Shown in pieces: positions 9,380 to 64,000 of a stretch of DNA of 64,000 nucleotides. The notes under the pieces were generated by a model. That model was given only the letters and a program-made list of their open reading frames with translations. It did no database searches and was not told where the DNA came from. Origin of the DNA: an uncultured bacterium (GTDB lineage: Bacteria > Cyanobacteriota > Vampirovibrionia > Gastranaerophilales > Gastranaerophilaceae); contig CASDVM010000027.1 in the NCBI GenBank assembly GCA_949284415.1, positions 28,016 to 92,015 of the forward strand, in the 5' to 3' direction. The stretch's first letter is position 1; each line of letters starts with the position of its first letter. A program made the translations under genes and the position numbers.

Positions 9380-9472
9380 ATGGGAAGTTTATTAAGAAAT
9401 GTAAATCGGGGGGGGGGGGCATTCTCGGCTGACAGGTGGCAAGAAGTCAGGAAGTCAGGTTGTTTACATTAA
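9380..9472 (+). other. Leader ORF of pilin locus A, containing a G12 tract at 9408-9419
   Basis: AGGAG at 9369-9373, ATG at 9380, sequence MGSLLRNVNRGGG, then the tract. As assembled it stops at 9470-9472. With 11 G it reads into the stop-free frame that continues as ORF 9489..10481. Confidence 0.7.
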
Positions 9473-9488
9473 TGTCATTGCGTATTTA

Positions 9489-10481
9489 TTGCGCAATCCG
9501 GAATTTTTCATAAAAAGGTCGCATACCATATGCGCGATGCCGGGTCTTAATATTAAATTCCTCGCCCTTTGGAAGAGAGTGTCCGAAGGACAGGGGATGG
9601 GCTTGTTACAAAGAAGGATGTCCTTGTTTAATGACTCAAAAGAGTCTCGTTATTACACAGAAAGTTCATGCAAAACTGATGTTGCGGGTGCAGCGGCTAC
9701 GATTCCGAAACGAACTTATTCACTTATTAACCTATTCTCTTATTCTCTTCATAAAAAAGCAGCGTTTACGCTTGCAGAGGTCTTGATAACATTAGGAATT
9801 ATCGGAATCGTAGCCGCTATGACTATGCCGTCTCTTATTTCGAATTACAGACATAAAGTTTTAGAAACCCAATTTAAAAAGGCATATTCTGTTATCAGCC
9901 GGCTTGGTTCAATGATTATTTCAGAGTATGGTGATTGTTCGTATAGTCAAACTGAAGATATAAAGGAGTTTATTTTATCTAATCTTATTAAGGCGGATCA
10001 GACGAGTTCTTCGGATAAATATACTAACTTTTTTACGTATACCAAAAACAAGGCATCTGTCGGAATTCATTTTAACTGTTTGGATAATGTTTCTTGGACA
10101 AACAGCAAAAGCGGTTCAACACCGGATGGAATGCAATTCGCTCTCTGTTCTCATAACAGCGGTATTGGAACAATAGTTGCAGTTGATACTAACGGAGCGG
10201 GAAAAAGACCTAATGCATTCGGTCATGATATATTTTTCTTTCATTTTAATACGGGAAATTGCAGGCTTGAACCTATAACATATACTATCCGCAATTGTAC
10301 TGATGAAGAAAAAGACAGTTGCACACAATCTTCAGATACATATAACGGATGGAAGAGTGTTAATGGAGAATGTTCTCATACAAGTACATCTTCTACAAAC
10401 GGATTTGCCTGTGCACGGTATGCTATTGCAAATGTATGTCCTGACAGTTCGGGCAAAGGATATTTTGATTGTCTGCCTTAG
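9489..10481 (+). CDS. Type IV pilin-like / pseudopilin-like protein A. The true start is probably the leader ATG at 9380, in frame only when the tract is in phase
   Basis: KKAAFTLAEVLITLGIIGIVAAMTMPSLISNYR prepilin-type motif at residue 91 of the tracked ORF; VDTNGAGKRPNAFGHDIFFFHF family motif. The frame is open back to 9405. Confidence 0.8.
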   Translation: MRNPEFFIKRSHTICAMPGLNIKFLALWKRVSEGQGMGLLQRRMSLFNDSKESRYYTESSCKTDVAGAAATIPKRTYSLINLFSYSLHKKAAFTLAEVLITLGIIGIVAAMTMPSLISNYRHKVLETQFKKAYSVISRLGSMIISEYGDCSYSQTEDIKEFILSNLIKADQTSSSDKYTNFFTYTKNKASVGIHFNCLDNVSWTNSKSGSTPDGMQFALCSHNSGIGTIVAVDTNGAGKRPNAFGHDIFFFHFNTGNCRLEPITYTIRNCTDEEKDSCTQSSDTYNGWKSVNGECSHTSTSSTNGFACARYAIANVCPDSSGKGYFDCLP

Positions 10482-11237: not shown

Positions 11238-11285
11238 ATGAAAGATTTATTAAGAATTGTGAACGCGGGGGGGGGCGCTTCTTAG
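11238..11285 (+). other. Leader ORF of pilin locus B, containing a G9 tract at 11267-11275
   Basis: AGGAG at 11227-11231, ATG at 11238, sequence MKDLLRIVNAGGG. It stops at 11283-11285 as assembled. With 8 or 11 G it is in frame with ORF 11371..12219, and there is no stop between them. Confidence 0.7.
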
Positions 11286-11370
11286 CTCCTTATCAATAAT
11301 TTTAACTTGTCAAAATAAAAAAAACTGTTATAATAGTGATAAAATACATCACAATTATAAGGGATTTAAC

Positions 11371-12219
11371 TTGGAAAAATTAAAAGGTTTTACCCGTGCG
11401 GAAGGTGCGCATGTAAGCGACTTTGACAAGATACGCAGAGCAGCATTTACTTTGGCAGAAGTTTTGATAACATTAGGAATTGTAGGAGTTGTAGCAGCCA
11501 TGACAATGCCCGCGCTGATAAATAATTACAGGGCAAAAGTCTTAGAAATAAGTTTTAAAAAAGCTGATTCCATTATTACCCAAGCAATGCAAACAACAAT
11601 GTATGAATACGGGTTTACAAGGTATTATGATTTCGGGATATTTTGTAGCGGTGAGTATTGTAAAGATACAAAACCTGAAGTTTACTTACCTCTGAACAAT
11701 TTATGGAAAAAGCAATTCAGCGGTTTAGAAGAGACAGGTTGGCAGCAAATAAAATCTAAAAATTATCCGTTTGCTAAATTTTGGGGAGAAAAAGCTAATT
11801 TTAATTACGTATTTATGGTTGCCGGTGCCAAGAATAATACTTCTCTAAAGGCATATTTTATGAAAGATGGAATGTTAATCAGTGAAATTATTTTTGAGGC
11901 AAATAATGCTTCGGAATTGGGTGATAAAAGTCATAGGTATACAATATTTCCATTTATATTTGTAGATACAAACGGACCGGCAAAAGGTCCGAATCGTTTA
12001 GGTTATGATATGTTCTATTGGGTTAAAATGACATGTTATTTTACATACTGCGATCCTTTATCTGATAATGTAAGAGGTTGTTATTTATGGGCAAGAAAAG
12101 ATCAAAATCCTTATGATAATTCGGTCAGTTATTGGAAATCATTGTATAAATCAAAGAGTTACTGGGAAAAATTAAAATCTATAGGCGGTGGTAATGGAGA
12201 ACCCAAAGAATTATATTAA
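11371..12219 (+). CDS. Type IV pilin-like / pseudopilin-like protein B
   Basis: RRAAFTLAEVLITLGIVGVVAAMTMPALINNYR and VDTNGPAKGPNRLGYDMFYW. A degenerate first motif MEKLKGFTRAE lies at the tracked TTG start. Confidence 0.8.
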   Translation: MEKLKGFTRAEGAHVSDFDKIRRAAFTLAEVLITLGIVGVVAAMTMPALINNYRAKVLEISFKKADSIITQAMQTTMYEYGFTRYYDFGIFCSGEYCKDTKPEVYLPLNNLWKKQFSGLEETGWQQIKSKNYPFAKFWGEKANFNYVFMVAGAKNNTSLKAYFMKDGMLISEIIFEANNASELGDKSHRYTIFPFIFVDTNGPAKGPNRLGYDMFYWVKMTCYFTYCDPLSDNVRGCYLWARKDQNPYDNSVSYWKSLYKSKSYWEKLKSIGGGNGEPKELY

Positions 12220-20900: not shown

Positions 20901-20931
20901 AAAAAGCCTGAGATATACCTCAGGCTTTTTT
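20901..20931. terminator. Bidirectional rho-independent terminator
   Basis: AAAAA-GCCTGAG-ATATAC-CTCAGGC-TTTTTT, lying between the convergent accC and the XRE gene. Confidence 0.8.
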
Positions 20932-21148
20932 AAAAGTCGAAGAAATCCTTAACGGGTATATCCAGTTTTTCTGCTATATCTATTAAAAGTCCTAAACTTA
21001 CGCATCTTTTGGCAGTTTCAATTTTTGCTAGGTGCTCTCTTGATATATCTAATAATTCTGCAAGCTGATTTTGCGAAAGTCCTTTTGCCTTTCTGAATTT
21101 GAAAATATTTCTGCCCAATTGTAAAATTTTTGTAGTCTTATTGTTCAC
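20930..21148 (-). CDS. XRE-family helix-turn-helix regulator, divergent from pilin D
   Basis: 72 aa, KGLSQNQLAELLDISREHLAKIETAKR. Confidence 0.85.
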   Translation of the reverse strand: MNNKTTKILQLGRNIFKFRKAKGLSQNQLAELLDISREHLAKIETAKRCVSLGLLIDIAEKLDIPVKDFFDF

Positions 21149-21202: not shown

Positions 21203-22027
21203 TTGAAGAGTTATATGAAAAACGCTTTTACGTTAACCGGAGGTGCTACACACGTAGTTATGCCGAGCAATTCTTGTCAATTCTTAACAGGGCTTTGTAC
21301 CGGTGGTACCACGCACATAACCTGCTTTGATAATATTAGTAAAGCCGCCTTCACTCTGGCAGAGGTTTTGATAACTTTAGGGATTATCGGTATTGTTGCA
21401 GCATTGACAATGCCTGCTTTAATCGGTAATTATCGCAAAAAACAGACAGTTGTGCAGTTGAAGAAGATATATTCTGCAATGTCGCAGTCTGTGCAAATGT
21501 CTCAGAGTAATTATGGAGATATTGCTGACTGGGATTGGACACTTAGTACGGAAGATTTTTTTTAAAGATATTTGAGTTATAATTTTTCTGTTCTTAAGTA
21601 TTGCGGAAAAAAAGAAGGCTGTTGGAACAAAGATGGCGGGCTAATGCCTAATGGAAATAAATACAGTGATCCTCCGACATTTGCATCTGGCAGTGATAGA
21701 GCCAAAATCAGCTTATCTGATGGTGCGTTTATTGCTATGCGTAAACAGGACAATAACCATGTGCATATCAATGTGGATATTAACGGTTTTAAACGTCCTA
21801 ATACTTATGGAGTGGATATTTTTGTATTTACATTAACGGCTGTCCCTTTTTCAGACAGTTCTCATAAGATTGCTTCACCGGGGCTGTTTATGTTTGGACA
21901 TGGATTGAATGAAAATGAAATAAAATCAAATTATAATGGCTGTTCCAAAAATTCGAACGGTCTTATGTGCGGTGAAAAAATATTAATGGACGGCTGGGAT
22001 ATTAAAGACGATTATCCGTGGAAATAA
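21203..22027 (+). pseudogene. Type IV pilin-like protein D, interrupted by one in-frame TAA at 21566-21568
   Basis: Tracked ORFs 21203..21565 and 21572..22027 are in the same frame. The N-part has KAAFTLAEVLITLGIIGIVAALTMPALIGNYR; the C-part has DINGFKRPNTYGVDIFVFTL and DGWDIKDDYPW. The stop aligns inside a conserved block of the paralogs. Confidence 0.7.
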
Positions 22028-22103
22028 TATTTAACATAAGGGTTGAAAACCTCTTCAAAATATGCTACAATAGTAACAGGAAGTATGTGTGTGAGGTTTT
22101 TGT

Positions 22104-22511
22104 ATGGCCGGAATTAATTTGTTCTATAATTTTACAAATCCTTTTGAAAAGCAGAAAGAACAGAGAAAGCAACAAAGAGATGCTTTGATAAAGAAAAATT
22201 ATGATGAAATTTATGCTCACGAACTTGCGCATAAGCGCGCGGGCGGTGATCTGGCAGGTGCAATCGTAATAGAGAGAAATGCTGACGGCATCCCGTTTGC
22301 AGGACATGTTGATATTAAAATGCCATCACTAAATCCGAATAATCCACAAAAAACCATAAATGATGCAAATACGGTAATTCGTGTAGCAATGGCGCCTTCA
22401 GATCCTTCACATCAGGATTATAAAGTCGCATCTCAGGCACAGAGTATAAAAATGCAGGCGCAGGCTGTAAAGTCTCAAAATGTGGGACAAAAACTAGATT
22501 ATAATGTATAA
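22104..22511 (+). CDS. SprA-related family putative metalloprotease
   Basis: YAHELAHKRAGGDLAG...HVDIKMP...AMAPSDPSHQDYKVASQA resembles the SprA-related (PF12118-type) pattern, recalled from memory. Confidence 0.6.
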   Translation: MAGINLFYNFTNPFEKQKEQRKQQRDALIKKNYDEIYAHELAHKRAGGDLAGAIVIERNADGIPFAGHVDIKMPSLNPNNPQKTINDANTVIRVAMAPSDPSHQDYKVASQAQSIKMQAQAVKSQNVGQKLDYNV

Positions 22512-22517
22512 TTGATA

Positions 22518-22546
22518 TTGAAAATTACATAAATTTTTGCTATAAT
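22518..22546 (+). promoter_or_regulatory. Sigma70-like promoter of pilin locus C
   Basis: TTGAAA, 17-nt spacer, then TGCTATAAT (extended -10). Confidence 0.55.
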
Positions 22547-22581
22547 AATAGTAGTAACAGTAAAAACAGAGGAGATTAATT

Positions 22582-22632
22582 ATGAAAGATTTATTAAGAT
22601 TTGTAAATCGGGGGGGGGGCATTCTCGGCTGA
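22582..22632 (+). other. Leader ORF of pilin locus C, containing a G10 tract at 22610-22619
   Basis: AGGAG at 22570-22574, ATG at 22582, sequence MKDLLRFVNRGGG. It stops at 22630-22632 as assembled. With 11 G it is in frame with ORF 22689..23615. Confidence 0.7.
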
Positions 22633-22688
22633 CAGGTGGCAAGAAGTCAGGAAGTCAGGTTGTTTACATTAATGTCATTGCGTATTTA

Positions 22689-23615
22689 TTGCGCAATCCG
22701 GAATTTTTCATAAAAAGGTCGCACACCATATGCGCGATGCCGGGTCTTAATATTAAATTCCTCGCTCATTGGAAGAGGGGGGCCGAAGGACATGAGAGGG
22801 GCTTTTTACAAAGAAGGATGTCCTTGTTTAACGACTCAAAAGAGTCTCGTTATTACACAGAAAGTTCATGCAAAACTCATATTGCGGGTGCCGCGGCTAC
22901 ACTGCCGAAACGAACTTATTCACCTGTTCACTTATTTTCTTATTCACTTCACAAAAAAGCAGCGTTTACGCTTGCAGAGGTCTTGATAACATTAGGAATT
23001 ATCGGAATCGTAGCCGCTATGACTATGCCGTCATTGATAACTAATTACCGAAAAAAACAAACTGCTGTCAGACTTGAAAGGTTTTATTCTATAATGAGTC
23101 AGGCTGTTCTCAGATGGCAGCAGGACGAAGGAATTGTGCCTGAGGATATCAGGTTTCCTGCGGAGACCGTAAAAAATGGTGTAAAAACGCAGGAGTGGTT
23201 TTCTTCTACAATCGGTAAATATATAACAACTACATATCAAACAACTAACGGGCAAAATTTTTCTGCTGCATTTAATGACGGTTCCGGATTTGATTCTTAT
23301 ATAGGCAATGAAAACCAGTTTTTTATATTTTACTGCGTAGATTATAAGTATTGTATAAATGCTAACGGAGACGGAAATTATAACGGTAAAACAGGGTTCC
23401 TGTTTGAGATAAACCGAGGCAAATTTCTAACATCTTCTCCATATTTTGATAACAAGACAAGAGAAGAAATCTTAGAATCGTGCAAATACGGAAACAGAGA
23501 TGACCCGTCTGTGAGTTCAAAAGGACGCCGTCATGCCTGTGCAAGACTTATTCAGATGGACGGCTGGGAAATAAGAAAAGACTACCCATGGGAACAAACA
23601 ATGTTAGAAAATTAA
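22689..23615 (+). CDS. Type IV pilin-like / pseudopilin-like protein C
   Basis: KKAAFTLAEVLITLGIIGIVAAMTMPSLITNYRKKQ and a C-terminal DGWEIRKDYPW. The leader is near-identical to locus A. Confidence 0.8.
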   Translation: MRNPEFFIKRSHTICAMPGLNIKFLAHWKRGAEGHERGFLQRRMSLFNDSKESRYYTESSCKTHIAGAAATLPKRTYSPVHLFSYSLHKKAAFTLAEVLITLGIIGIVAAMTMPSLITNYRKKQTAVRLERFYSIMSQAVLRWQQDEGIVPEDIRFPAETVKNGVKTQEWFSSTIGKYITTTYQTTNGQNFSAAFNDGSGFDSYIGNENQFFIFYCVDYKYCINANGDGNYNGKTGFLFEINRGKFLTSSPYFDNKTREEILESCKYGNRDDPSVSSKGRRHACARLIQMDGWEIRKDYPWEQTMLEN

Positions 23616-23651
23616 TTTACCTTTAATTGTTTGTGATATAATCATGGTCGT

Positions 23652-24965
23652 ATGAGTGTACAATTCAGGTATTATGCGAAAGAACTTTTAAACATTGCCC
23701 TGCCGATTATTATGGGTAACCTCGGTTTTATCCTGATCGGTGCAGGTGATGTGCTGGTTGCAGGGCACCATTCAACCGATACTCTTGCTGCAATCAGTAT
23801 TGCAACTGCAATTACAAATTGTATTCAGACATTCGGAGTAGGGTTGATTTCAAGCGTTTCTCCGCTTTTGTCAAATTTTCGCGGGGAAAAGAAAAGCGCT
23901 AAAAAATATTTTTATCCGACAATAAGATTTGCAATGCTTCTTGCATTTATAATTATGCTTGCGGTTCTTGCATTTATACCTGTTATAGATTATCTGCATT
24001 TCGCACCGAAGCTTGTCCCGATGATTAAGGAATATATGTTTATTACAGCATTTGCAACATTCGGCGCATATCTGCATTCGGCTTTAAAAGAATTCTTACA
24101 GGCTTTTGAAATTGTTGTGTTTCCGAATTTAATTACTGCTATAGCGGTATTTTTAAATATTGCTTTATGTTTTGCTATGGTATTCGGATTTGGTCCTATT
24201 CCTTCAATGGGAGTTGTAGGCTTAGCTGTCGCAAGTTTTATCATAAGATACTTTATGGGATTTGCACTTTTAATATATTGTTTTACATTAATGAATTTTA
24301 AGGATCATAAAGATTTTGAGTATTACAAGAGTTTGATAAGAATAGGAATACCGATATCATGTGCTGTTATGGTTGAATTTATAGCATTCAACAGTATTGC
24401 AATCCTGATGGGGCGTGTTGACGGAGTTTATGCTGCCGCTCAGAATTTGGTATGTACGTTGACGACAATTTCGTTTATGGTTCCGTTTGCTGTTTCTAAT
24501 GCTATTGCTGTTAAAGTCGGTTTTGCAAACGGTGCTGGTAATATCAAGGATTTGAAAAGATATTCTTTTGTTGGAATTGTTATTTGTACAGGATTTATGA
24601 TGCTGAGTGCGCTTGTATTCTCAACATTCCCGCATTTTCTTGTCGGATTGTTCAGTCAGGATGCAAATCTTATAAAAATTTCAGTGCCTATTTTGTATAT
24701 TTTGGCGATTTTTCAAGTATTTGACGGATTACAGATATCGCTTGCCGGAATTTTCAAGGGAATGAAAAGAACCGGAGTTGTATTACTTTCTAATTTTATC
24801 GCATACTGGCTGATTTCTATTCCCGTGGGATATACCCTTGCGTTCCATTATCACTTGAATTTAAAAGGTTTCTGGATAGGCCTTGCTTCAGCCGCGGTTA
24901 TCCTTTGCGCAATAATGTCTGCTATGCTTATTAAAAGTATTAAGAATTTGGAAACTGTTAAATAG
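23652..24965 (+). CDS. MATE family efflux transporter
   Basis: 437 aa, about 12 TM helices, and an N-terminal LLNIALPIIMGNL typical of MATE proteins. Confidence 0.8.
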   Translation: MSVQFRYYAKELLNIALPIIMGNLGFILIGAGDVLVAGHHSTDTLAAISIATAITNCIQTFGVGLISSVSPLLSNFRGEKKSAKKYFYPTIRFAMLLAFIIMLAVLAFIPVIDYLHFAPKLVPMIKEYMFITAFATFGAYLHSALKEFLQAFEIVVFPNLITAIAVFLNIALCFAMVFGFGPIPSMGVVGLAVASFIIRYFMGFALLIYCFTLMNFKDHKDFEYYKSLIRIGIPISCAVMVEFIAFNSIAILMGRVDGVYAAAQNLVCTLTTISFMVPFAVSNAIAVKVGFANGAGNIKDLKRYSFVGIVICTGFMMLSALVFSTFPHFLVGLFSQDANLIKISVPILYILAIFQVFDGLQISLAGIFKGMKRTGVVLLSNFIAYWLISIPVGYTLAFHYHLNLKGFWIGLASAAVILCAIMSAMLIKSIKNLETVK

Positions 24966-25003
24966 CTTATTTTTATGCTACAATAAACTTGAATGGAGGA
25001 ATT

Positions 25004-25480
25004 ATGCATACAGAAGAAAGAACATTTGTGGCTATCAAGCCTGACGGAGTAAAAAGAGGCTGTGTAGGCGAGATTATAAGCCGCTTTGAAAAGAAGGGTT
25101 ACAAGCTTATCGGCATGAAAATGCTTCAAGTTACGGAAGAAATAGCTGCAAAACATTATGAGGAACACATAAACAAACCATTTTACCCTAACCTTGTAAA
25201 ATATATTACAAGCGGTCCTATTATTGCTATGGTGTTTCAGGGTTATAAGGCTGTTCAGGGAATCCGTCACCTTTTAGGTGCAACAGACCCGTGTGAAGCC
25301 GATGTTGGTTCTATAAGAGCTGATTATGCACAATTAAAAGAATACAACACGATTCATGGTTCGGATAGTGTTGAAAGCGCTGAAAGAGAAATAGCTATTT
25401 ATTTCAAACCCGAAGAGCTCTGTACAAATTACAAAAATATGATGGAGCTTGTTACAGAGGATATTGATGAGGGCGAGTAA
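25004..25480 (+). CDS. ndk: Nucleoside diphosphate kinase
   Basis: ERTFVAIKPDGV and NTIHGSDS motifs. GGAGG SD before the ATG at 25004. Confidence 0.93.
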   Translation: MHTEERTFVAIKPDGVKRGCVGEIISRFEKKGYKLIGMKMLQVTEEIAAKHYEEHINKPFYPNLVKYITSGPIIAMVFQGYKAVQGIRHLLGATDPCEADVGSIRADYAQLKEYNTIHGSDSVESAEREIAIYFKPEELCTNYKNMMELVTEDIDEGE

Positions 25481-25567
25481 GCTGAGGACGGGACTTGTTA
25501 CTGCTGTGGCAAAGAGCCGTTAAGGTAACAGCCGCAGACCCGTTAAACGCGAACGAGTAAGATAAAA

Positions 25568-26683
25568 ATGGGAAACGATTATTTTAAATATGAATTAGTT
25601 CATGAATGTAAGCAGACAGGTGCAAGAGCAGGGATTTTAACAACCCCGCACGGAATGATTAAAACTCCGATTTTTATGCCTGTCGGAACTAATTCTGCCG
25701 TCAAAACCCTTACATCTGACCAAATAGCAGATACAGGCGCGCAAATTATGCTTTCAAATTCTTATCACTTGTATTTGAGGGCAGGTACAAAGCTGATAAA
25801 GCAGTTTGGCGGAATTCACGGCTGGATGAACTGGCATAAACCTGTTTTAACAGATTCCGGCGGTTTCCAGGTATTTTCACTGAGTCATTTGAACAAAATA
25901 ACTGAAGACGGCGTAGAGTTTCGTGATCCTAAAGACGGCAAAAAGCATTTTATAAATCCAGAAGTTTCAATGGAAATTCAGCAGGATATAGGTGCTGATA
26001 TAATTATGGCATTTGATCAGTGCGCGCCGTTTCCATGTGATTACGATACGGCTAAAAAAGCTATGGAGAGGACTCACCGCTGGCTTGAAAGATGTTTTAA
26101 AGCAAAAACAAACCCGCGTCAGGCGCTTTTCCCGATTGTTCAGGGCGCTTTTTATGATGATTTGAGGCGTGAAAGCGCAAATGTAATCTCATCTTATGAT
26201 GCTGTCGGATACGCAATCGGAGGATTGAGTGTCGGAGAAACAAAAGATATTATGAATCATTTTGTTGAATTTACGGCACCTCTGCTTCCTAAATATAAAC
26301 CGCGATACTTAATGGGAGTTGGGACTCCTGAAGATTTGCTTGACGGAATAAAACGCGGGATTGATATGTTTGATTGTGTATTGCCGACACGCAACGCAAG
26401 ACATGGCTCTTTCTTTACCCCAAACGGTAAATCGAATATTAAAACAAAACAGTATTATGATGACGAGCGTCCGCTTGTTGAAGGTTGTAACTGCTATGCA
26501 TGCAAAAATCATTCGAGAGCGTACATCAGACATCTGTGGAGATGCGGAGAAACAACAGCATCGACACTTTTGTCCATTCACAACATTAAATTTCTCGTAG
26601 ACTTTTCTCAAAAATGTCGTGAAGCAATTTTAAATGACACCTTCGGTGATTTTTATAACGAGAATTATAAAAATCTTATTTGA
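25568..26683 (+). CDS. tgt: Queuine tRNA-ribosyltransferase
   Basis: TPIFMPVGT, LTDSGGFQV, and CxCxxC followed by H (CNCYACKNHSRAYIRH). Confidence 0.95.
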   Translation: MGNDYFKYELVHECKQTGARAGILTTPHGMIKTPIFMPVGTNSAVKTLTSDQIADTGAQIMLSNSYHLYLRAGTKLIKQFGGIHGWMNWHKPVLTDSGGFQVFSLSHLNKITEDGVEFRDPKDGKKHFINPEVSMEIQQDIGADIIMAFDQCAPFPCDYDTAKKAMERTHRWLERCFKAKTNPRQALFPIVQGAFYDDLRRESANVISSYDAVGYAIGGLSVGETKDIMNHFVEFTAPLLPKYKPRYLMGVGTPEDLLDGIKRGIDMFDCVLPTRNARHGSFFTPNGKSNIKTKQYYDDERPLVEGCNCYACKNHSRAYIRHLWRCGETTASTLLSIHNIKFLVDFSQKCREAILNDTFGDFYNENYKNLI

Positions 26684-26737
26684 CTTTAACTGAAATATCA
26701 TTATTTATAAGTCAGAGGCAATAATGAGGTTTTAGTT

Positions 26738-26923
26738 ATGGATAAAATTGAAGATTTATCACAAACCGAAAGTGCTGTCGGCAAAACTGTCGATCATGTT
26801 ACAATCGACAACGAAGATTATGAAACTCTCGATATAGAGGATCCTCTAGTGTGGTTGTATTTGGACGGTCAAGAATCTCAAGGTCTTATGAATGCTGACT
26901 TTCTGGAATTCTTTACTATTTGA
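26738..26923 (+). CDS. Small acidic hypothetical protein, 61 aa
   Basis: ORF with a GAGG SD-like sequence upstream. No motif recognised. Confidence 0.35.
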   Translation: MDKIEDLSQTESAVGKTVDHVTIDNEDYETLDIEDPLVWLYLDGQESQGLMNADFLEFFTI

Positions 26924-26926
26924 GAC

Positions 26927-27535
26927 TTATAACCTGTGCGGATAATCTTTTCTGAATTCCCAATTGTCTATTTCCAGCAATGCAGAGCAATAAGCCCCAT
27001 TATTTTTGCATGCTTCAAGTATTTTATCTCTTGAATGCGGCTGATTTCCATAATAGTATGTGCACCATCCTTTATTTGGACACCATTCTGTTATTGATTT
27101 GTCGCAGGCTAAAAATCTGAATCTGTCCCTGCCCTCGACATTAGGTTTTTTATCTCCGTTAACATCAAAGATACAGTCCATACATCTTCCTCTGTATATA
27201 GTTAATTTTGTTCCATCAGGAAAATACATTATAGCCTGACTATTATTTTCATCAATAGACAAAGCCTTAAGATATGGAGCCCAGTATTTCGTGGCAAATT
27301 CTTTCGGAGGCAGTGATAAATCCCATTCATTAACATCACCGTTTTCTTCAACAGAAAGAATCAGTGCCTGCCCCATCATAGAATTGAATTTTTTCAACCT
27401 TGCACTTGTTTCTTGTCTTTTATAGCTAGTGATAAGACTAGGGAGTGTCAATGCTGCAACTATACCTATAATTCCGAGTGTAATCAAAACTTCAGCCAAA
27501 GTAAACCCGATTTTAGTCTCATTATTCTGTTTCAT
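26927..27535 (-). CDS. Type IV pilin-like protein G with a canonical short leader
   Basis: MKQNNETKIG-FTLAEVLITLGIIGIVAALTLPSLITSYKRQ, FDVNGDKKPNVEGRDRFRFL and C-terminal IDNWEFRKDYP. The ATG at 27535 is preferred over the tracked start at 27628. Confidence 0.85.
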   Translation of the reverse strand: MKQNNETKIGFTLAEVLITLGIIGIVAALTLPSLITSYKRQETSARLKKFNSMMGQALILSVEENGDVNEWDLSLPPKEFATKYWAPYLKALSIDENNSQAIMYFPDGTKLTIYRGRCMDCIFDVNGDKKPNVEGRDRFRFLACDKSITEWCPNKGWCTYYYGNQPHSRDKILEACKNNGAYCSALLEIDNWEFRKDYPHRL

Positions 27536-27567
27536 AATATAATTATAACTCTTTATATTATATATGT

Positions 27568-27604
27568 CAATATATAATACTACATTATATAGTATTATAT
27601 ATTG
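27568..27604. promoter_or_regulatory. Perfect 15-bp inverted repeat with a 7-nt spacer; candidate operator
   Basis: CAATATATAATACTA-cattata-TAGTATTATATATTG, in the 104-nt divergent spacer between pilin G and the XRE gene. Confidence 0.55.
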
Positions 27605-27639
27605 TTTATTGTAGTTTAAAATACTCATATTATAAAACT

Positions 27640-27864
27640 ATGGATGATAAAGAACTTTTTAGCAGAATTGGTCTGAATATTAGAGTAGAGCGTACTATAA
27701 AACGTCTCACCCAAGCCCAGCTTGCAGAAATGATTGATGTACATGAAAAATATATAGGTAAAATTGAAACAGGAAAACAAAATATAACTCTTAAAACCCT
27801 GAATAAAATTGCACAAGCTTTAAATATAGATATAACAAGACTGTTAGAAGACAAAAATCATTGA
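27640..27864 (+). CDS. XRE-family helix-turn-helix regulator, divergent from pilin G
   Basis: 74 aa, RLTQAQLAEMIDVHEKYIGKIETGKQN. Confidence 0.85.
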   Translation: MDDKELFSRIGLNIRVERTIKRLTQAQLAEMIDVHEKYIGKIETGKQNITLKTLNKIAQALNIDITRLLEDKNH

Positions 27865-27883
27865 CAATTATTTATTTTTTATG

Positions 27884-30460
27884 TTAATTAAACAGGTTTA
27901 ACTGTGGAACTTCAACAGATGGAACATCAACGGATTTTTTGCGTGTTGAAAGGTTATTGGAATAATCTTTCTGCATCCTTGTCATTAATTCCTGCGAGCG
28001 CTTAATTACAGCCTGCGGCAACCCTGCCATTTTTGCTACCTGAATTCCGTAGCTTTTGCTTGCACCGCCCTGGACTATTTTACGTAAAAATTCAATCTCT
28101 CCGTTTTCTTCCGTTATTGTAATTCTGTAATTTTTTATCTGCGGATAAGTTTTTGTCATTACGTTCAACTCATGATAATGTGTTGCAAAAATACATCTCG
28201 CTTTTATTTTTGTCGCAATGTATTCTGCAACTGACCATGCTATTGCAACACCATCGTAAGTGCTTGTACCTCTGCCGATTTCATCAAGAAGTATAAAACT
28301 CCTTTCTGTTGCGGAATTTAAAATACATGCTGTTTCAATCATCTCAACCATAAAAGTTGACTGTCCGAGTGTCAAATCATCAGATGCTCCGACACGTGTA
28401 AAGATTTTGTCAATAATACCGATTTTTGCGTAATCTGCAGGAACCCATGAACCTATCTGGGCTAAAATTGCAATCAGTGCATTCTGACGCATATAGGTTG
28501 ATTTACCTGCCATATTCGGGCCTGTCAAAATCATAAACTGTGTTGAATCAAGCGAATTACATTTTAATTCCAGGTCATTCGGAACATATTCCCCGAGCGG
28601 AAGTATTTTTTCAAGCACAGGGTGGCGCCCGTTTTTGACAATAAAATCATCTGATTCATCAATAACCGGTTTGCAGTAATTATTCTCGACAGCGGTTTGC
28701 GCAAGTCCTGTATATACATCGCATTTTGCTATGCATTCGGCAATTTCTCTGATTTTTGAGACGAATTCTTTTGAATATTCCCTGAAATCACAGAATAATT
28801 TATATTCCAATTCCGTTGATTTGAATTTTGCGGAAAGAACATCATCTTCATGTTTTTTTAACTCTTCTGTTATAAATCTTTCGCCCGTTGTCAGGGTTTG
28901 CTTTCTTACATAACCTTCGGGAATTTGATTAAGATAAGAATTTGAAATTTCGATAAAGTATCCGAATACTTTGTTAAATCCTATTTTTAAAGATTTAATG
29001 CCTGTTCTTTCTTTTTCCTTTTCTTCAAAGTTTTTCAGCCAATTTTCTCCTCCGGTCAAAAGTTCACGGAAATAATCAAGTTCACCTGATACGCCTTCTT
29101 TTAAAATTCCGCCTTCTTTTATAACCTGTGGAGCGTTTTCCGCAATTGTTCTGTCAATTAATGATGCATATTCAGATATTTCATCTCTATATTGGTTAAT
29201 CTCTGCCAGCGGGTTATATTCAAGCTTTTCTGTTGCATCTAAAAGCTGCGGAAGAATCATCAAAGATGATTTCAAACTTAGGAAGTCTCTTGGGTTTGCT
29301 GAACTGTTAGACATTCTTGTTGCAAGTCTCTGTATATCATATATTTTTTCTAAAAGATTTGATATAGTGATGCGTTCGTCTGACTTTTCAACAAGTTCGG
29401 TTATGCAATTCTGACGGTTTAGAATATCTTCAACATGTTTTAGAGGCTGGCAGACCCAGTTTTTCAAAAGCCTTGCGCCCATATTTGTTTTTGTTTTGTC
29501 AACAGACCAGAGTAATGAACCGAATTTGTTTTTATCGCGCAGAGTTTCCGTAAGCTCAAGATTTTTTCTCGTACTTCCGTCCAAAATCATGTATTCGGAA
29601 AGTTCATAAGGCTCAATTCTTTCGAATTTGGGAACATTGTCTTTTAATGTTTCCCAGATATAAGCAAGCAAGGCGCCTGCTGCTCTGAACCCTGTTTTAT
29701 ATCTGTCATAGCCGAAAGATTCAAGACTGGTCGCCTGAAAAACTGCCTTAAGGTTGTTTTCTGCAAAATTAGTTTCAAAAACTGATGACGGAATTTTTGA
29801 ACAATTGTAATTTTTGGTAATTTCTTCCGGCAAATCAATCTTTTCATCAGGTACAATCTGAAACGGCATAATTTTTTGTTTCACAGAAGGACCTACGACT
29901 TCTGCAGGTGCAATTCTTGTCAATTCTGCAAGAATAAGCTCATAAGGAGCCTGTGTAACTTTAAACTCCCCTGTTGAAATATCGGCGTATGAAAATCCCC
30001 ATATTCCGCTTTTTTCGTCTTTAAACAGTGCACAAATATAATTGTTGGAGTTCTGCTGTAGAAAGTCGCTTTCTGTCAGAGTACCTGATGTTACAATTCT
30101 TGTAACCCCTCTTTTTACAAGCCCTTTTGCAAACTTTGGATCTTCAAGCTGGTCGCATATTATAACTTTATAATTTTTTTGGACGAGTTTTTCAAGATAA
30201 TTATTTACGGCCTTTGCAGGAATTCCCGCAAGCGGAATTCTTCCGAATTTCCCCTGTTCTCTGCCGGTCAGCGTAAGTTCAAGTTCTTTAGACATCGTAA
30301 CGGCATCTTCAAAAAATGTTTCGTAAAAATCCCCGAGTCTGTATAGCAGAATTTTATCCGGATTCTGGTGTTTAATTTTTAAATACTCCTGCATTGCAGG
30401 TGTCAGCTCCTCGACTTTAATATCAGCTGTATTAATAAGATTGATTTCATTATTTTTCAT
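27884..30460 (-). CDS. mutS: DNA mismatch repair protein MutS
   Basis: TPAMQEYL, TGPNMAGKST, LLDEIGRGTSTYDG and ATHYHEL. The ATG at 30460 avoids overlap with the divergent gene at 30498. Confidence 0.95.
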   Translation of the reverse strand: MKNNEINLINTADIKVEELTPAMQEYLKIKHQNPDKILLYRLGDFYETFFEDAVTMSKELELTLTGREQGKFGRIPLAGIPAKAVNNYLEKLVQKNYKVIICDQLEDPKFAKGLVKRGVTRIVTSGTLTESDFLQQNSNNYICALFKDEKSGIWGFSYADISTGEFKVTQAPYELILAELTRIAPAEVVGPSVKQKIMPFQIVPDEKIDLPEEITKNYNCSKIPSSVFETNFAENNLKAVFQATSLESFGYDRYKTGFRAAGALLAYIWETLKDNVPKFERIEPYELSEYMILDGSTRKNLELTETLRDKNKFGSLLWSVDKTKTNMGARLLKNWVCQPLKHVEDILNRQNCITELVEKSDERITISNLLEKIYDIQRLATRMSNSSANPRDFLSLKSSLMILPQLLDATEKLEYNPLAEINQYRDEISEYASLIDRTIAENAPQVIKEGGILKEGVSGELDYFRELLTGGENWLKNFEEKEKERTGIKSLKIGFNKVFGYFIEISNSYLNQIPEGYVRKQTLTTGERFITEELKKHEDDVLSAKFKSTELEYKLFCDFREYSKEFVSKIREIAECIAKCDVYTGLAQTAVENNYCKPVIDESDDFIVKNGRHPVLEKILPLGEYVPNDLELKCNSLDSTQFMILTGPNMAGKSTYMRQNALIAILAQIGSWVPADYAKIGIIDKIFTRVGASDDLTLGQSTFMVEMIETACILNSATERSFILLDEIGRGTSTYDGVAIAWSVAEYIATKIKARCIFATHYHELNVMTKTYPQIKNYRITITEENGEIEFLRKIVQGGASKSYGIQVAKMAGLPQAVIKRSQELMTRMQKDYSNNLSTRKKSVDVPSVEVPQLNLFN

Positions 30461-37195: not shown

Positions 37196-40100
37196 TTATT
37201 CTTCGTCTTCATTACCGAGCTGGAAGTCAGGAGAACCGAACATACCTTCAATTTCTTCCAAAATCGCAGACGGTTTTCTTGCCTGATTTCTTTGAGCTAC
37301 CGCACGTTTTCTTTCTTCACGTTCTTTCTCTTCGTTCGCATTTGAAAGATGGTGGAAGCCTGTGCCTGCAGGTATCAAACGACCGATGATAACGTTTTCT
37401 TTCAAACCTCTCAACATGTCTTTTTTACCTTCAACGGCTGCTTCTGTCAGGATTCTTGTTGTTTCCTGGAATGAAGCTGCTGAAATGAAACTTTCTGTGT
37501 TCAAAGAAGCTTTTGTGATACCTAATAACATATATTCACAAGTTGCAGGTTGACCGCCTTTTTCTTCAACTTCTTTGTTTTCTTTTTCGAATGTCTGCAT
37601 TTCAATTAATTCACCCGGCAGTAATGTTGTATCACCTGCATCGACAACTTTAACTTTTTTAGTCATCTGTCTTACGATGATTTCAACGTGTTTATCGGCA
37701 ATTTCTACACCTTGAGAACGATATACTCTCTGTACTTCATCCACAAGATATTGCTGTGCGGCTTCCGGTCCGCAGAGTCTTATAACATCGTGCGGGTTCA
37801 AAGGTCCGCTTGTCAAAGGCTGACCTTTTTTGATTTTCTGTTTATTCTGAACAACGATGTTTGCATCAATTGCGTATTTGATCTCGGTTCTGCCATTGTC
37901 AGTAACAAGATAGAGTCTCGGCAAATCTTCATCCGTTTCAATTTCCGCAATACCGTCTTCTTCTGCCAGAATAGCACAATCTTTAGGTTTGCGGCCTTCA
38001 AGAAGTTCTTCAACCCTCGGAAGACCCTGAACGATATCACCTGTTTTTTGTCTTTCAAATACAAGTGTTGCAATGTTATCACCGCGGAGAACAAGTGCGC
38101 CTGCTTCAACCTGTAACATAGTACCCGGGCTGATTAAGTATGGACGACCGTTTCTGATTGTTATTTCACCTTTATTAACAGATGTTACCATACCTGAAAC
38201 GGTTGATTTTTCTCCGCTGTCCGCAATGATTGAATCAAGTTTTACAAAGTCGCCTTTTTTAACGTTTGCTTTGCCTTTTACAGACAATGTTGTTTCATAA
38301 GTTTCGCTTGTTAAAAGAAGTCTTCTTGCATCTTCTTTTTCGGATTTTATTGAAGCAACGCCGTCATTGATTGCCAGTACCTGAGTTTTAGCAACAGGTG
38401 TTTTCGGGTCAATAGTCTGGCCGTCTTTTACAAGAAGTTCTGTTTGAAGTGATGACATTGTTTTTGCATTGCCTTCAAATTCACGGCGGACGATTAAGTT
38501 TTCAAGAACAACTATTCTTAAATTATCTTTATCATCAAGTTCTACCATACCTTTAAGGTGTGATAAGTAGCCCTGCATCTGCAGAACAAGACTTGTTCTT
38601 GTAATTGTAGAACCATCGAGATTTCTAACTCTTGCACCGTCTTTGTATTGCAATTGTGTTACAGGTACAATGTCAATCAAGCTGTCAGATGTGTTGAATT
38701 TGATAGATACATTTTTTTGTTCAACATTTAATACCTGAACAGGTCTGATAAGTATCTGTATAGGCTGATTTGATATGTTATCTTCATCAAGCGAAAGACT
38801 TGAGTCAAGTTCTTCATCAAGATCATCGATATCCAGATCATCCATTGAAGAATCCATAATCGTAACGATAGAAGTTTCTTTTACTTTAATACCGTCTGCA
38901 ATTACGGTGCCTTTTTTTACAACTTCGCCTTCGTCAACCTTTAATTCCGAAACACTTGAAAGTGTATGAATTTCACCAGGGCGGATTGTTATTTCATGGA
39001 TAACATCGTTGTATTCTTTGAATTCAACAATACCGTCAATGTGGCAGTAAACATCTTTTACAACTTCGGTGCCTGCTGTAACGTGAGTTCCGTTTTCAAC
39101 CATTTTTAAAGAAGAATCTTTATTAATCTGGTGAATTTCTTCCGGAATAAATACAACAGAACCCGGTTTTGTAATAATCTGGTTTTCGTCTACTTCAACA
39201 TCAACATATCTGATTTCGCCTGATGAAGTTACTGCACATTCATCATCAATAAGTTCTGCGATAATCATACCGTTTTCAACCGTTGTATCAACAGGTGCTT
39301 TTACGATATATTTTTCACCGGTTTTGTTAACTGTCCACAACTGTTCTTTTTTAGTTTGTTCAAATGTCGCATTTTCAGGCATCAATGAAGCAATTACTAT
39401 TGTCAATTCTTTACCTTGAACAATTTTTTTGATATTTTTGCCTTCAAATTTAACATCTTCAATAACTAAATCTTCACCGAAACGGACTTCACCGCCGTGT
39501 TCAGAGATTGTTAAAGTTTCTGCGAGTTTTTCGCCTTCTTTAATTTTCTGACCGTCTTTTACAAGAACTTTAGATCCGCCGGGGAGGTTATAAACATCAC
39601 CGCCAAGAACCCAGATAATACCTTGTTTGTTGGTAGTTCTTGAGATGTTGCCCTGTCTGTCTTTCTTTTCATCAGCTACAAAATCTTCATATAACACTTC
39701 ACCGGAAAGATCTGATGTAATATCTTTTGTGGCTTTTTCTGTCAGACGTGAGCCTGAGCCTTGAGCTGACGGTTCAAACTGGGCAAGTTTAAAGCCTTTT
39801 TTAACCTGCATTCCGTTTGTAAAGAAGATTGTAGAGCCTGCCGGAATATGGTATTTTTCAGTTCTTTTGGCGCCTTTAATTTCAATGTCGGTTTCGTAAT
39901 TAGAGATATTAACAACATCGCCATGACGTGTTCTTAATTCTCTTGTTTTTACATTAGAAATTACTTCACCGTCTTGTTTTGCAATTACTTCTTTGATTGC
40001 ATCTTTAACGCCTACCGCACCGCCAGTGTGGAATGTTCTCATTGTAAGCTGTGTACCGGGTTCACCGATTGACTGCGCTGCAATAATACCGATTGCTTCC

Positions 40101-41056
40101 CCGATATCAACGAGTTTCTGGGTCGTCATTGCCCAGCCGTAGCATTTCTGGCAGATTCCGTATTCAAGACCGCAGGTTAAACCTGAACGAACTTTCAATT
40201 CCTGAAGATTCAGATGTTTAACTTTTTGAATATCATCTCTGTTCATTGTTGTTCCTGCTTTTACAAGAACTGTACCATCCGTATCAACGATATCTTCTGC
40301 AATTGTTCTGCCAAGTAACCTGTCAATCAGAGGAACAATAACATTATCACCGTCAGTAATAGGTTTCATGTTAATTGATTTTGTAGTATGGCAGTCATCG
40401 GCACGGATAATGACATCCTGAGCAACGTCTACCAGTCGTCTTGTCAAATAACCTGAGTCAGCTGTTTTCAACGCCGTATCTACAAGCCCTTTTCTTGCGC
40501 CGTATGATGAAATGATGTATTCCGTAACGGATAAGCCTTCTTTAAAGTTTGATTTAATCGGCAAGTCGATGATTTGTCCCTGCGCATCTGCCATCAAACC
40601 TCTCATTCCCACAAGCTGAGATACCTGTGATAAGTTACCTCTGGCACCTGAGAATGCCATCATATATACAGGGTTTAATTTGTCAAAGTTTTCAACTACC
40701 TGAGATGTTAATTTAGCTGTTGTTTCAGACCAGGTGTCGATAACTTTTGTATATCTTTCTACTTCGGTGATTTCACCTTTAAGATATCTGTTAGTTGATT
40801 TTTCGATTTCTTTTTCGGCTTCTTGAAGCAATTCTTTCTTTGCTTCCGGAACCTGCAAGTCTGCAATAGAAATTGTTGTTCCGGATTTCGTAGCATACTT
40901 ATAGCCGAGGTTTTTCAGGCTGTTAGCCAATTCTGCGGTTTTAGCCCCGCCAAACTCCAGATACATTTGTGAAAGCAAATTGTTTAATCCTTTTTTATCC
41001 ATTTGCTTGTTAATGAAATCTACAGTTTTTTTACCATGTGTGTATGTTGTTTCCAT
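37196..41056 (-). CDS. rpoC2: RNA polymerase beta-prime subunit, C-terminal part (cyanobacterial-type split)
   Basis: Starts after the NADFDGD-containing part and carries the trigger-loop and C-terminal beta-prime blocks (GEAIGIIAAQSIGEPGTQLTMRTFHTGG) with a large lineage-type insertion. Confidence 0.95.
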   Translation of the reverse strand: METTYTHGKKTVDFINKQMDKKGLNNLLSQMYLEFGGAKTAELANSLKNLGYKYATKSGTTISIADLQVPEAKKELLQEAEKEIEKSTNRYLKGEITEVERYTKVIDTWSETTAKLTSQVVENFDKLNPVYMMAFSGARGNLSQVSQLVGMRGLMADAQGQIIDLPIKSNFKEGLSVTEYIISSYGARKGLVDTALKTADSGYLTRRLVDVAQDVIIRADDCHTTKSINMKPITDGDNVIVPLIDRLLGRTIAEDIVDTDGTVLVKAGTTMNRDDIQKVKHLNLQELKVRSGLTCGLEYGICQKCYGWAMTTQKLVDIGEAIGIIAAQSIGEPGTQLTMRTFHTGGAVGVKDAIKEVIAKQDGEVISNVKTRELRTRHGDVVNISNYETDIEIKGAKRTEKYHIPAGSTIFFTNGMQVKKGFKLAQFEPSAQGSGSRLTEKATKDITSDLSGEVLYEDFVADEKKDRQGNISRTTNKQGIIWVLGGDVYNLPGGSKVLVKDGQKIKEGEKLAETLTISEHGGEVRFGEDLVIEDVKFEGKNIKKIVQGKELTIVIASLMPENATFEQTKKEQLWTVNKTGEKYIVKAPVDTTVENGMIIAELIDDECAVTSSGEIRYVDVEVDENQIITKPGSVVFIPEEIHQINKDSSLKMVENGTHVTAGTEVVKDVYCHIDGIVEFKEYNDVIHEITIRPGEIHTLSSVSELKVDEGEVVKKGTVIADGIKVKETSIVTIMDSSMDDLDIDDLDEELDSSLSLDEDNISNQPIQILIRPVQVLNVEQKNVSIKFNTSDSLIDIVPVTQLQYKDGARVRNLDGSTITRTSLVLQMQGYLSHLKGMVELDDKDNLRIVVLENLIVRREFEGNAKTMSSLQTELLVKDGQTIDPKTPVAKTQVLAINDGVASIKSEKEDARRLLLTSETYETTLSVKGKANVKKGDFVKLDSIIADSGEKSTVSGMVTSVNKGEITIRNGRPYLISPGTMLQVEAGALVLRGDNIATLVFERQKTGDIVQGLPRVEELLEGRKPKDCAILAEEDGIAEIETDEDLPRLYLVTDNGRTEIKYAIDANIVVQNKQKIKKGQPLTSGPLNPHDVIRLCGPEAAQQYLVDEVQRVYRSQGVEIADKHVEIIVRQMTKKVKVVDAGDTTLLPGELIEMQTFEKENKEVEEKGGQPATCEYMLLGITKASLNTESFISAASFQETTRILTEAAVEGKKDMLRGLKENVIIGRLIPAGTGFHHLSNANEEKEREERKRAVAQRNQARKPSAILEEIEGMFGSPDFQLGNEDEE

Positions 41057-41161
41057 TTATATCTATCCTTTTTTTAACTTGTCAATGCACTCGGGTGGTC
41101 TTCATAACTTGTTTCAAGATTTTGAGACTTTTCCCTCGCATCTGTTTGTTTTATCGATTTC

Positions 41162-50873: not shown

Positions 50874-51671
50874 TTAAAAACTAATTCTTCTGGGGTAGTT
50901 TTTCGGGATTTTCCATCCGTTGCGCTGGATTATTGCTGTACAATATGCTCCTCCACTTTCATTGTTTGTTCCGCTATTTGGGTTACACCCTATTTGGGTA
51001 TCATTGTATAATGTATCTTCATCCCCATCCCAATTGTATAGATATGGTTCCATTCCTTTCTTATACAAGTATTTCCAGAAAGGTGCATCACTAATGGGAT
51101 AGAATTCAAAAATAAATCTGCAAGATCCTATGGAGTTTTCTTTTTTTATACATTTTTCAGGATTTTTAGGTATAAAATATATATCACGGTTTTCATGCTG
51201 TGCAAAGTAAAAAGCGCTCCCGTCAGCTAAAAAGTAAAGAATAATTTTATTTCCGTCAGCATCTTTAGCTTCTTTTTTATGAGTAATTTTCATGTACGGC
51301 GCAAGGTATTCTTGAAAAGACTCGTCATTTTTGTCAGCCTGATTAACTTTATTCCCCTCATCATCTTCTATATCGTTGTTGAAATAGCTCCAGCTTTCAA
51401 CCTCACCGTTATCGACAATTGACTGTAAAATAGCCTGATTCATAACAGAGTAGAATTTTTTCAGTCTTGTTTCAGCCACGGAGTGTGTGTAATTTTGTAT
51501 TAAAGCCGGCATTGTCATAGCAGCGACAATCCCTATAATGCCTAAGGTTATTAAAACTTCGGCCAATGTAAACGCGACTCGTTTTTTAAGTGAAGTGTGA
51601 AAAGTAAAGTGTGAAGTACATTTCCCTCTCCCCTTGCGGGAGAGGGGGAACGTAGCCGTTCCATCCAACAC
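50874..51671 (-). CDS. Type IV pilin-like / pseudopilin-like protein F
   Basis: KKRVAFTLAEVLITLGIIGIVAAMTMPALIQNY and C-terminal NGWKIPKNYP. The frame stays open upstream to 51806, through the C tract. Confidence 0.8.
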   Translation of the reverse strand: MLDGTATFPLSRKGRGKCTSHFTFHTSLKKRVAFTLAEVLITLGIIGIVAAMTMPALIQNYTHSVAETRLKKFYSVMNQAILQSIVDNGEVESWSYFNNDIEDDEGNKVNQADKNDESFQEYLAPYMKITHKKEAKDADGNKIILYFLADGSAFYFAQHENRDIYFIPKNPEKCIKKENSIGSCRFIFEFYPISDAPFWKYLYKKGMEPYLYNWDGDEDTLYNDTQIGCNPNSGTNNESGGAYCTAIIQRNGWKIPKNYPRRISF

Positions 51672-51763
51672 CTTAGTCTTGCATAAAACTTTTACGATAC
51701 TTCCTACTGCCCTATTGCCATAGTATTTTACTATCTTCTTAAATACTAAATCACAATCCCTTG

Positions 51764-51814
51764 CTATACAATACTTCTCGGGGGGGGGGCGATTCTCAGC
51801 TCTTCTCTATTCAT
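51764..51814 (-). other. Leader ORF of pilin locus F, containing a C10 tract (coding sense) at 51780-51789
   Basis: AGGAGG at 51823-51828 (minus strand), ATG at 51814, sequence MNREELRIAPPP. It stops at 51764-51766 as assembled. ATG to the pilin GTG is 143 nt, so one extra C (11) restores the frame. Confidence 0.7.
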
Positions 51815-63921: not shown

Positions 63922-63972
63922 ATGAAAAGATCAGATTATTCAAGAGTTCGGGGGGGGGGCACTCTCAGTTAG
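63922..63972 (+). other. Leader ORF of a fifth phase-variable locus (E), containing a G10 tract at 63950-63959. The downstream gene lies beyond the window
   Basis: AGGAG at 63908-63912, ATG at 63922, sequence MKRSDYSRVRGGG, stop at 63970-63972. The alternative frame HSQLAEGKKSGSQ matches the in-phase frame of loci A and C. Confidence 0.6.
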
Positions 63973-64000
63973 CTGAGGGCAAGAAGTCAGGAAGTCAAGT

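Follow-up and report, generated by a model that had tools for sequence, protein, structure and literature searches.

A G tract ahead of a type IV pilin-like gene in a gut Melainabacterium as a probable slipped-strand phase switch

In Haemophilus influenzae, lic1 carries a tetranucleotide repeat with alternative start codons in different frames. The opa family of Neisseria comprises numerous paralogues, which are mostly off and each bear a 5′ repeat, and Neisseria pilC carries a G/C run within the gene (PMC5953494). In Campylobacter jejuni, tracts shorten from G11 to G10 about ten times as fast as they lengthen from G10 to G11, the modal length is nine repeats, and this mutational bias makes G9 and G10 tracts prevalent (PMC3401435). 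Here, we analyzed a 64,000-nucleotide stretch (the window) from an uncultured bacterium of the Gastranaerophilales (contig CASDVM010000027.1, positions 28,016 to 92,015), with the focus on a locus, termed locus C, where a run of ten G stands near the start of a pilin-like gene. In our view, locus C is probably a contingency gene, phase-variable by slipped-strand mispairing, that encodes a type IV pilin-like surface protein in a gut Melainabacterium. Such a mechanism has precedents; what is new here is the lineage, the great length of the apparently translated leaders, and the uniformity of the in-frame length. In the literature, we found no paper linking Melainabacteria or Gastranaerophilales to homopolymer phase variation and none mentioning DUF6613.

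While inspecting locus C, we identified a sigma-70-type promoter, which is the top-scoring promoter match within positions 22000-23800, and a Shine-Dalgarno sequence followed by an ATG whose coding start, MKDLLRFVNR, leads directly into the G10 tract (Table 1). The tract starts 28 nucleotides (nt) after the ATG. Its length decides what can be read: G10 gives 16 amino acids (aa), G9 or G12 gives 29 to 30 aa, and G8, G11, or G14 gives a 344-codon open reading frame (ORF) that runs from 22582 to a stop at 23613-23615 and contains KKAAFTLAEVLITLGIIGIVAAMTMP. Locus C thus has a hypermutable tract (at least about 8) within a reading frame, and a change in its length moves the downstream ORF into or out of frame. 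This is exactly the logic of C. jejuni capA, which is on at G11 and off at G10 and G12, and C. jejuni, too, lives in the gut, is AT rich, and has G/C runs of 9 to 11 in its reading frames. The first-pass annotation of this DNA, which was made from the letters alone, had placed here a TTGAAA-17 promoter, AGGAG, the ATG at 22582, MKDLLRFVNR, ten G, and a stop at 22630, and had proposed that 11 G would join this ATG to the pilin frame ending at 23615. Each of these elements was found where it had been placed, and the larger picture of a slippage-prone tract one G short, a pilin gene, and a leader shared with another locus (locus A) was borne out as well.

Table 1. Positions of locus C, related loci, and flanking features in the window
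Feature	Position	Strand	Remarks
Sigma-70-type promoter, locus C	22518..22546	+	TTGAAA-17-TATAAT, TG extension; 11/12 matches
Shine-Dalgarno sequence, locus C	22569..22574	+	GAGGAG; ATG 7 nt downstream
Short ORF at G10	22582..22632	+	MKDLLRFVNRGGGILG, then TGA 22630-22632; 16 codons, ATG 22582
G10 homopolymer (putative switch)	22610..22619	+	In-frame lengths 8, 11, 14
Leader, locus C	22620..22964	+	345 nt (115 codons); ends KKAA before predicted prepilin cleavage site; stop-free in pilin frame only
Mature type IV pilin-like protein, locus C	22965..23615	+	Begins FTLAEVLITLGIIGIVAAMTMP; DUF6613; stop codon included
Locus A, pilin-like gene	9380..10481	+	ATG 9380; G12 at 9408-9419; in-frame 11; leader
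Locus B, pilin-like gene	11238..12219	+	ATG 11238; G9 at 11267-11275; in-frame 8 or 11
Locus D, pilin-like gene	50874..51814	-	ATG 51814; tract 51780-51789, C10 in coding sense; in-frame 11
Locus E	63922..64000	+	ATG 63922; G10 at 63950-63959; in-frame 11; gene extends past window end
Pilin-like gene without tract	26927..27535	-	Canonical short leader MKQNNETKIG↓FTLAEV; own TTGACA/TATAAT promoter at ~27560-27590
G-strand right flanks with C-N(5-7)-AGCT	9420-9435, 11276-11290, 22620-22635, 51790-51805, 63960-63975

The tract of locus C is one of a family. In the window, which has 36% G+C, five sites carry at least nine G, compared with 0.03 on average over 100 shuffles that preserved dinucleotides, which excludes a chance origin. 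The first-pass annotation had listed three tracts; the other two, the poly-C coding sense at locus D, and the 115-codon, apparently translated leader within the pilin frame had escaped it. All five runs lie at the 5′ ends of pilin-like genes and begin 25 to 29 nt past the ATG, and an AGGAG or GGAGG stands 6 to 9 nt 5′ of the ATG at every tract locus. At length 11, the window tracts open into the prepilin motif A↓FTLAEVLITLGIIG (PF07963; the arrow marks the predicted cleavage site) and genes with DUF6613. In 333 kb of related sequence, 34 of 34 G/C runs of at least 8 fall in the 5′ ends of pilin genes. In loci A and C, the first 104 nt after the tract are identical (the earlier estimate was 100) and identity remains at ~93%, ungapped, over ~378 nt into the pilin N terminus. 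The in-frame length is 11 at both, with G12 at A and G10 at C, so the two do flank the on length as had been proposed. Counted from the ATG that bears the Shine-Dalgarno sequence, in-frame lengths of 8, 11, and 14 apply at 10 of the 11 distinct tract loci despite differing flank geometry.

This arrangement resembles that of opa, a multicopy surface-protein family with a repeat near each 5′ end whose copies switch independently and are mostly off. However, the opa repeat is a pentamer (CTTCT) in the leader-peptide coding region rather than a homopolymer, and Opa proteins are outer-membrane beta-barrels with an ordinary signal peptide, in contrast to the 66- to 180-residue leader extensions found here. 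C. jejuni also differs, as its targets are mostly enzymes that modify surface glycans or flagella instead of pilin-like subunits, and its tracts are not restricted to one gene family or a common 5′ module.

The predicted product of locus C has the N terminus of a type IV pilin, with the class III signal KKAA↓FTLAEV fitting the pattern [G/A]↓F-x-x-x-E followed by a hydrophobic helix of ~20 residues. The PF07963 match of this product scored 24.4 bits against a cutoff of 21.2. DUF6613 (PF20318) matched the locus D product at 96.2 bits against a cutoff of 24.3, and precomputed annotation places PF20318 on the locus C product and its homologues. An AlphaFold2 model with a predicted local distance difference test (pLDDT) score of 83.9 has an N-terminal helix at residues 7 to 59 (53 residues), then a beta sheet of six or seven strands, and the modelled protein has conserved Cys pairs. 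A Foldseek search of the model against the PDB gave no match at an E value of ≤0.001. The motif, DUF6613, and the modelled helix followed by a sheet together suggest a pilin-like protein. No prepilin peptidase or assembly ATPase was found within the window; a Gastranaerophilus genome has been reported with pilA, pilB, pilC, pilT, and pilD, and pilB, pilC, pilT, and pilD are encoded by Gastranaerophilales genomes (PMC5877343). Locus C invites comparison with Neisseria pilC1/pilC2, where a G/C homopolymer of at least 9 also lies within the 5′ coding region of a gene for a pilus-associated protein. PilC, however, acts as an adhesin at the tip, modulates retraction, and has a Sec signal peptide, whereas the protein here is a pilin-like subunit with a class III signal; moreover, pilC has two copies in a proteobacterium, as opposed to a large paralogous family in a Melainabacterium.

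We hypothesized that the long stretch between tract and cleavage site is read as protein. The three frames of the locus C leader hold 0 (pilin frame), 2, and 5 stops, and a stop-free frame had a probability of 0.001 in shuffles. Across nine long-leader loci, where the interval from tract to FTLAE spans 170 to 510 nt, the pilin frame has no stops and the other frames have 2 to 15 each; the shuffle probability of a stop-free pilin frame is 0 to 0.0125 per locus. Between the leaders of A and C there are 24 substitutions, with a ratio of nonsynonymous to synonymous changes (dN/dS) of 0.36, which is weak evidence, from small counts, of constraint in the pilin frame. At one further locus (L016b/L017b), the tract lies inside an ordinary 20-residue leader, MRIFLNNASTGGG(A)LLAAING↓FTLAEV, so there the tract is coding beyond doubt. 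We conclude that the ATG before the tract is the likely start codon and that the leader is probably translated. The translated leader would be 127 residues long in C and 66 to 180 residues in the other paralogues, and it would stay in the cytoplasm and be cut off by prepilin peptidase.

The alternative for the leader is that the tract sits in a 5′ untranslated region or a regulatory upstream ORF, with the pilin starting internally nearer to FTLAEV. Locus B offers a precedent, as a promoter-like site (11307-11334, 11/12 matches) and a TTG at 11371 after AAGGGA would give a normal 22-residue leader, and gene callers place the start of the locus C product at internal ATGs (P0001). At locus C itself, the 47 codons nearest to FTLAEV contain no ATG, GTG, or TTG served by a Shine-Dalgarno sequence, its candidate ATGs lack proper spacing to any purine-rich stretch, and neither a start with a proper Shine-Dalgarno sequence nor a promoter-like site was found anywhere in its leader. 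An internal start would also leave the open leader frame and the dN/dS below 1 unexplained, and we regard it as highly improbable. We likewise rejected an in-frame alternative start upstream of the tract at G10, as there is no ATG, GTG, or TTG in the pilin frame between the stop at 22530 and the tract.

Other origins and roles for the leader were also considered. BLAST of the leader against the window and the relatives matched only other pilin leaders, and a source in intergenic repeats of the repetitive extragenic palindrome or miniature inverted-repeat transposable element type was rejected for this sample. A known RNA element was rejected as well: Rfam found one tRNA only in the window, with no match in the leader, and folding of 22548-22760 was no better than that of shuffles (z = -0.71). 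In locus B, the strong internal promoter (TTGTCA-16-TATAAT) lies 3′ of the tract, and expression may be independent of the locus's own tract; its leader also holds a degenerate second pilin motif, KGFTRAEG.

If the tracts are contingency loci, their lengths should differ among close strains, with in-frame and out-of-frame alleles. We surveyed relatives by 12 exact-protein look-ups. The full-length in-frame protein matched four loci in genome contigs, the closest being from metagenome-assembled genomes (MAGs) of uncultured Candidatus Melainabacteria (MEL.A1 and a human-gut MAG), and the leader-only protein gave two matches; the related contigs derive from assembled metagenomes, of which at least one carries a human-gut label. 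One relative, strain L015, shares synteny with the window at 93 to 96% identity (SNF2 helicase, EF-P, accB/accC, the HTH gene, the pilin gene, and the SprA-like gene). Identity was 93.5% over the segment spanning the upstream genes, the promoter, which is kept, the ATG, and the first 150 nt of the leader. In L015, the promoter, ATG, and tract module of locus C carries G11 in place of G10 and is in frame, giving a 375-aa full-length protein. An in-frame G11 is likewise present in L014, whose protein is 83% identical.

Three other assemblies of the window strain (ERZ16268086, ERZ17292901, and Logan ERR10610480) had no substitutions relative to the window in the compared overlaps, ~23 kb non-redundant. 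Besides three short indels in scaffolds of ERZ16268086, a single difference was seen: the locus B tract is 9 in the window and 10, one base short, in the three other assemblies. Lengths were constant in every covering assembly at A (12, also in L011), D (C10, also in L024), and E (10, twice). The first-pass annotation had held that one fixed out-of-phase length everywhere would speak against slippage; that is not what we found, because L015 and L014 carry in-frame G11 and locus B differs in length between assemblies. For locus C in the window strain, we infer switching from these differences.

These comparisons also bear on whether the lengths themselves can be trusted. Homopolymers of at least 10 are error-prone, and the observed lengths are mostly 10 where 11 is needed, as would be expected if the true length were 11 everywhere, the genes constitutively on, and short-read consensus under-called G runs. 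ERZ16268086 in addition has evident join artefacts within the repeated leader. Nevertheless, the lengths recur across separate assemblies and samples (C 10 in four; A 12 in two; D and E 10 in two each), runs of 9, 11, and 12 were assembled elsewhere so that there is no ceiling at 10, and locus A is one base too long rather than short. An assembly or sequencing artefact is thus very unlikely to account for the tract lengths.

The indels in ERZ16268086 are an 11-nt tandem duplication (L009/L001, window 22697), an 8-nt duplication (L011, window 9501), and the loss of 10 nt from the biotin carboxylase gene (L001, window 20152). They are probably scaffolding artefacts rather than biology. Both duplications are sited in the 104-nt stretch common to A and C, and we rejected them as biological variants since they are most likely join artefacts.

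Taken together, these data point to slipped-strand phase variation at locus C, and several observations weigh against it. All five window loci are out of frame (12, 9, 10, 10, and 10). Locus C is G10 in four of four assemblies of the window strain, with no variation at C within the strain. Most of the 11 distinct loci are exactly one base short, which is more uniform than a freely fluctuating switch suggests. Two paralogues are broken in other ways, one by a nonsense codon at 21563 and one by a deletion in the body of locus E, so some decay is under way. Finally, a leader of 127 residues before a prepilin cleavage site is unusual, far from the short, positively charged leader (~6 to 30 residues) of such signals, and residue -1 at locus C is Ala, where Gly is usual.

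Seven loci are one base short: C, D, E, L003, P0060, and L028, all at 10, and the L016b/L017b locus, at 9 and 10 for in-frame lengths of 10 and 11. Two loci are in frame at an observed length of 11, and two others are A at 12 and the P0008 locus at 9; locus B is counted as the eleventh locus. The simplest explanation would be mutational bias, under which a gene with an on length of 11 is mostly off at 10. Alternatively, G10 could be the working state, with programmed slippage making the full-length protein at a set low level, an expression device instead of a heritable switch. RNA polymerase would add a G on the long run, or the ribosome would slip back one base on G GGG GGG. The excess of one-short loci fits this proposal, as does the constancy of that length in every assembly at C, D, E, P0060, and L003. 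A -1 slip on the all-G run at G10 would restore the pilin frame with perfect re-pairing of tRNA-Gly. The RNA-DNA hybrid in transcription is about ten bases long, close to the length of the run, so realignment is conceivable. On the other hand, the RNA structure after the tract is not significant (the z score given above), conservation of a small CUGAC/GUCAG hairpin does not extend to E, L015, or L014, and the leader has no Rfam match. Lengths of 9, 11, and 12 occur too, and a bias toward G9-G10 of the C. jejuni type accounts for the excess without an extra mechanism. To our knowledge, there is also much less documentation of efficient slippage on G or C runs than on A or T runs. We therefore consider programmed slippage unlikely.

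The flanks of the tracts have a further regularity. On the G strand, each run is followed by C-N(5-7)-AGCT, e.g., CATTCTCAGCTGAC and CGATTCTCAGCTC, in the window tracts (Table 1) and in the relatives, and this motif stays on the same side even where the gene runs in the opposite direction (D, L003, and P0008). The poly-C start modules (Shine-Dalgarno sequence, ATG, ~22 nt, and C run) resemble the antisense of a post-tract leader of the locus B type (GGG-A-I/L-L-S-S...). It is doubtful, in our view, that the one-short length is a designed state, tuned for low expression by slippage, and that the G run with C-N(5-7)-AGCT is a portable module or recognition site. Such a module, if real, would install the tract ahead of pilin genes or recombine pilin genes, and either proposal, if true, would go beyond classical slipped-strand phase variation.

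With five of five window loci off, a sixth paralogue carrying the nonsense codon, and the frame-breaking deletion in locus E, one could instead propose a decaying gene family in which the tracts are mutational weak points that inactivated surplus pilin paralogues, without adaptive reversible switching. In every out-of-frame allele, the pilin frame of the long leaders is still free of stops, which decay would not preserve. Despite a G+C content of 36%, tracts of 9 to 12 G/C have also persisted at one position across diverged paralogues and species and in both orientations, and relatives carry in-frame alleles. We regard decay as quite unlikely to be the main explanation.

The broken paralogues were looked at individually. 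The pilin-like paralogue at 21203-22027 (+) is split by a TAA nonsense codon at 21563-21565 in all assemblies of the window strain and is intact (270 aa) in L015. A T8 run at 21556-21563 was considered as a second slippage switch and rejected: an A-to-T substitution (T7AAAA to T8AAA) makes the TAA, and the length is unchanged. In L023, which continues locus E past the window end, part of the coding region for the N-terminal helix is missing from the gene body (...GIIGIVAA, then a frameshift); locus E would be nonfunctional even with G11, yet the G10 tract is still present.

Aligning window 22770-27884 with L015 10190-15680, we found that the MatE-NDK-TGT block (window ~22861-27506) is inverted between two inverted pilin genes. 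Relative to L015, window locus C combines the G-type promoter, tract, and leader of one gene with the mature domain of the other, and the other mature domain is placed at 27535-26927 (-) with its own promoter and canonical short leader. In L015, the mature domain of that tract-free gene is joined to a G11 long-leader module. These swaps imply that recombination reshuffles expression modules and pilin bodies between strains, apparently by homologous recombination within the leader and N-terminal helix region that the genes share. In opa, too, recombination between paralogues adds variation. Upstream of locus C, the pilin cluster is flanked by a gene for a small HTH_3-family regulator (20930-21148, -) and an SprA-related gene (22104-22511, +), both kept in L015. 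Elsewhere in the window, rpoC is split into two genes, of 569 and 1,286 aa (37196-42871, -), which fits the Melainabacteria assignment. A split rpoC is the cyanobacterial arrangement.

The relatives also exposed a problem with predicted proteins. In several of L014, L016-L022, and L025-L027 (P0057, P0060, P0061, and P0008), an out-of-phase frame is open upstream through the promoter to an ATG or GTG, so gene callers report long "in-frame" proteins with spurious N termini. One such N terminus, ...YVIIRNV, is a translated TATAAT box. These termini can mislead annotation and any tally of on and off alleles drawn from protein databases. In P0008, P0057, P0061, and P0060, an additional ATG lies 5′ of the tract in a different frame, which recalls lic1 in that more than one tract length then yields a long ORF. 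Unlike in lic1, the second starts here have no Shine-Dalgarno sequence and run through the promoter, and they are probably gene-caller artefacts.

For the favored reading, a phase switch at locus C, we propose the following model. Transcription would begin at the promoter at 22518-22546 and translation at the ATG at 22582, and the ribosome would meet the G homopolymer nine codons in. At G11 (or 8 or 14), reading would continue via the 115-codon leader and KKAA↓FTLAEV into the DUF6613 pilin domain; prepilin peptidase would then cut away the entire cytoplasmic leader, and the mature protein would be displayed at the surface. At G10, the state in the window, translation would end at the TGA at 22630 after 16 codons, and the pilin part would not be made because it lacks its own Shine-Dalgarno sequence and start codon. 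Slipped-strand mispairing at replication would lengthen or shorten the run by one base and so flip the gene on or off. Since each of five or more paralogues has its own tract, a population could display differing combinations of pilin-like proteins, with most copies off at any time, as with the Neisseria opa genes.

Gut Melainabacteria are uncultured, and little is known of their interactions with the host, phages, and other microbes. A switched family of pilin-like proteins implies fluctuating selection on filaments or on secretion or uptake pseudopili, for which immunity, phage attack, or changing attachment sites would be candidate agents. For annotation of MAGs, tract genes of this kind will be miscalled systematically, as truncated starts, "pseudogenes," or spurious N-terminal extensions across promoters. 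The long leaders, which would be translated, at most weakly constrained, and disposable, suggest that a class III signal peptide can accommodate a long extension on the cytoplasmic side. For the organism itself, the switched family implies a bet-hedging strategy like that of well-known mucosal pathogens.

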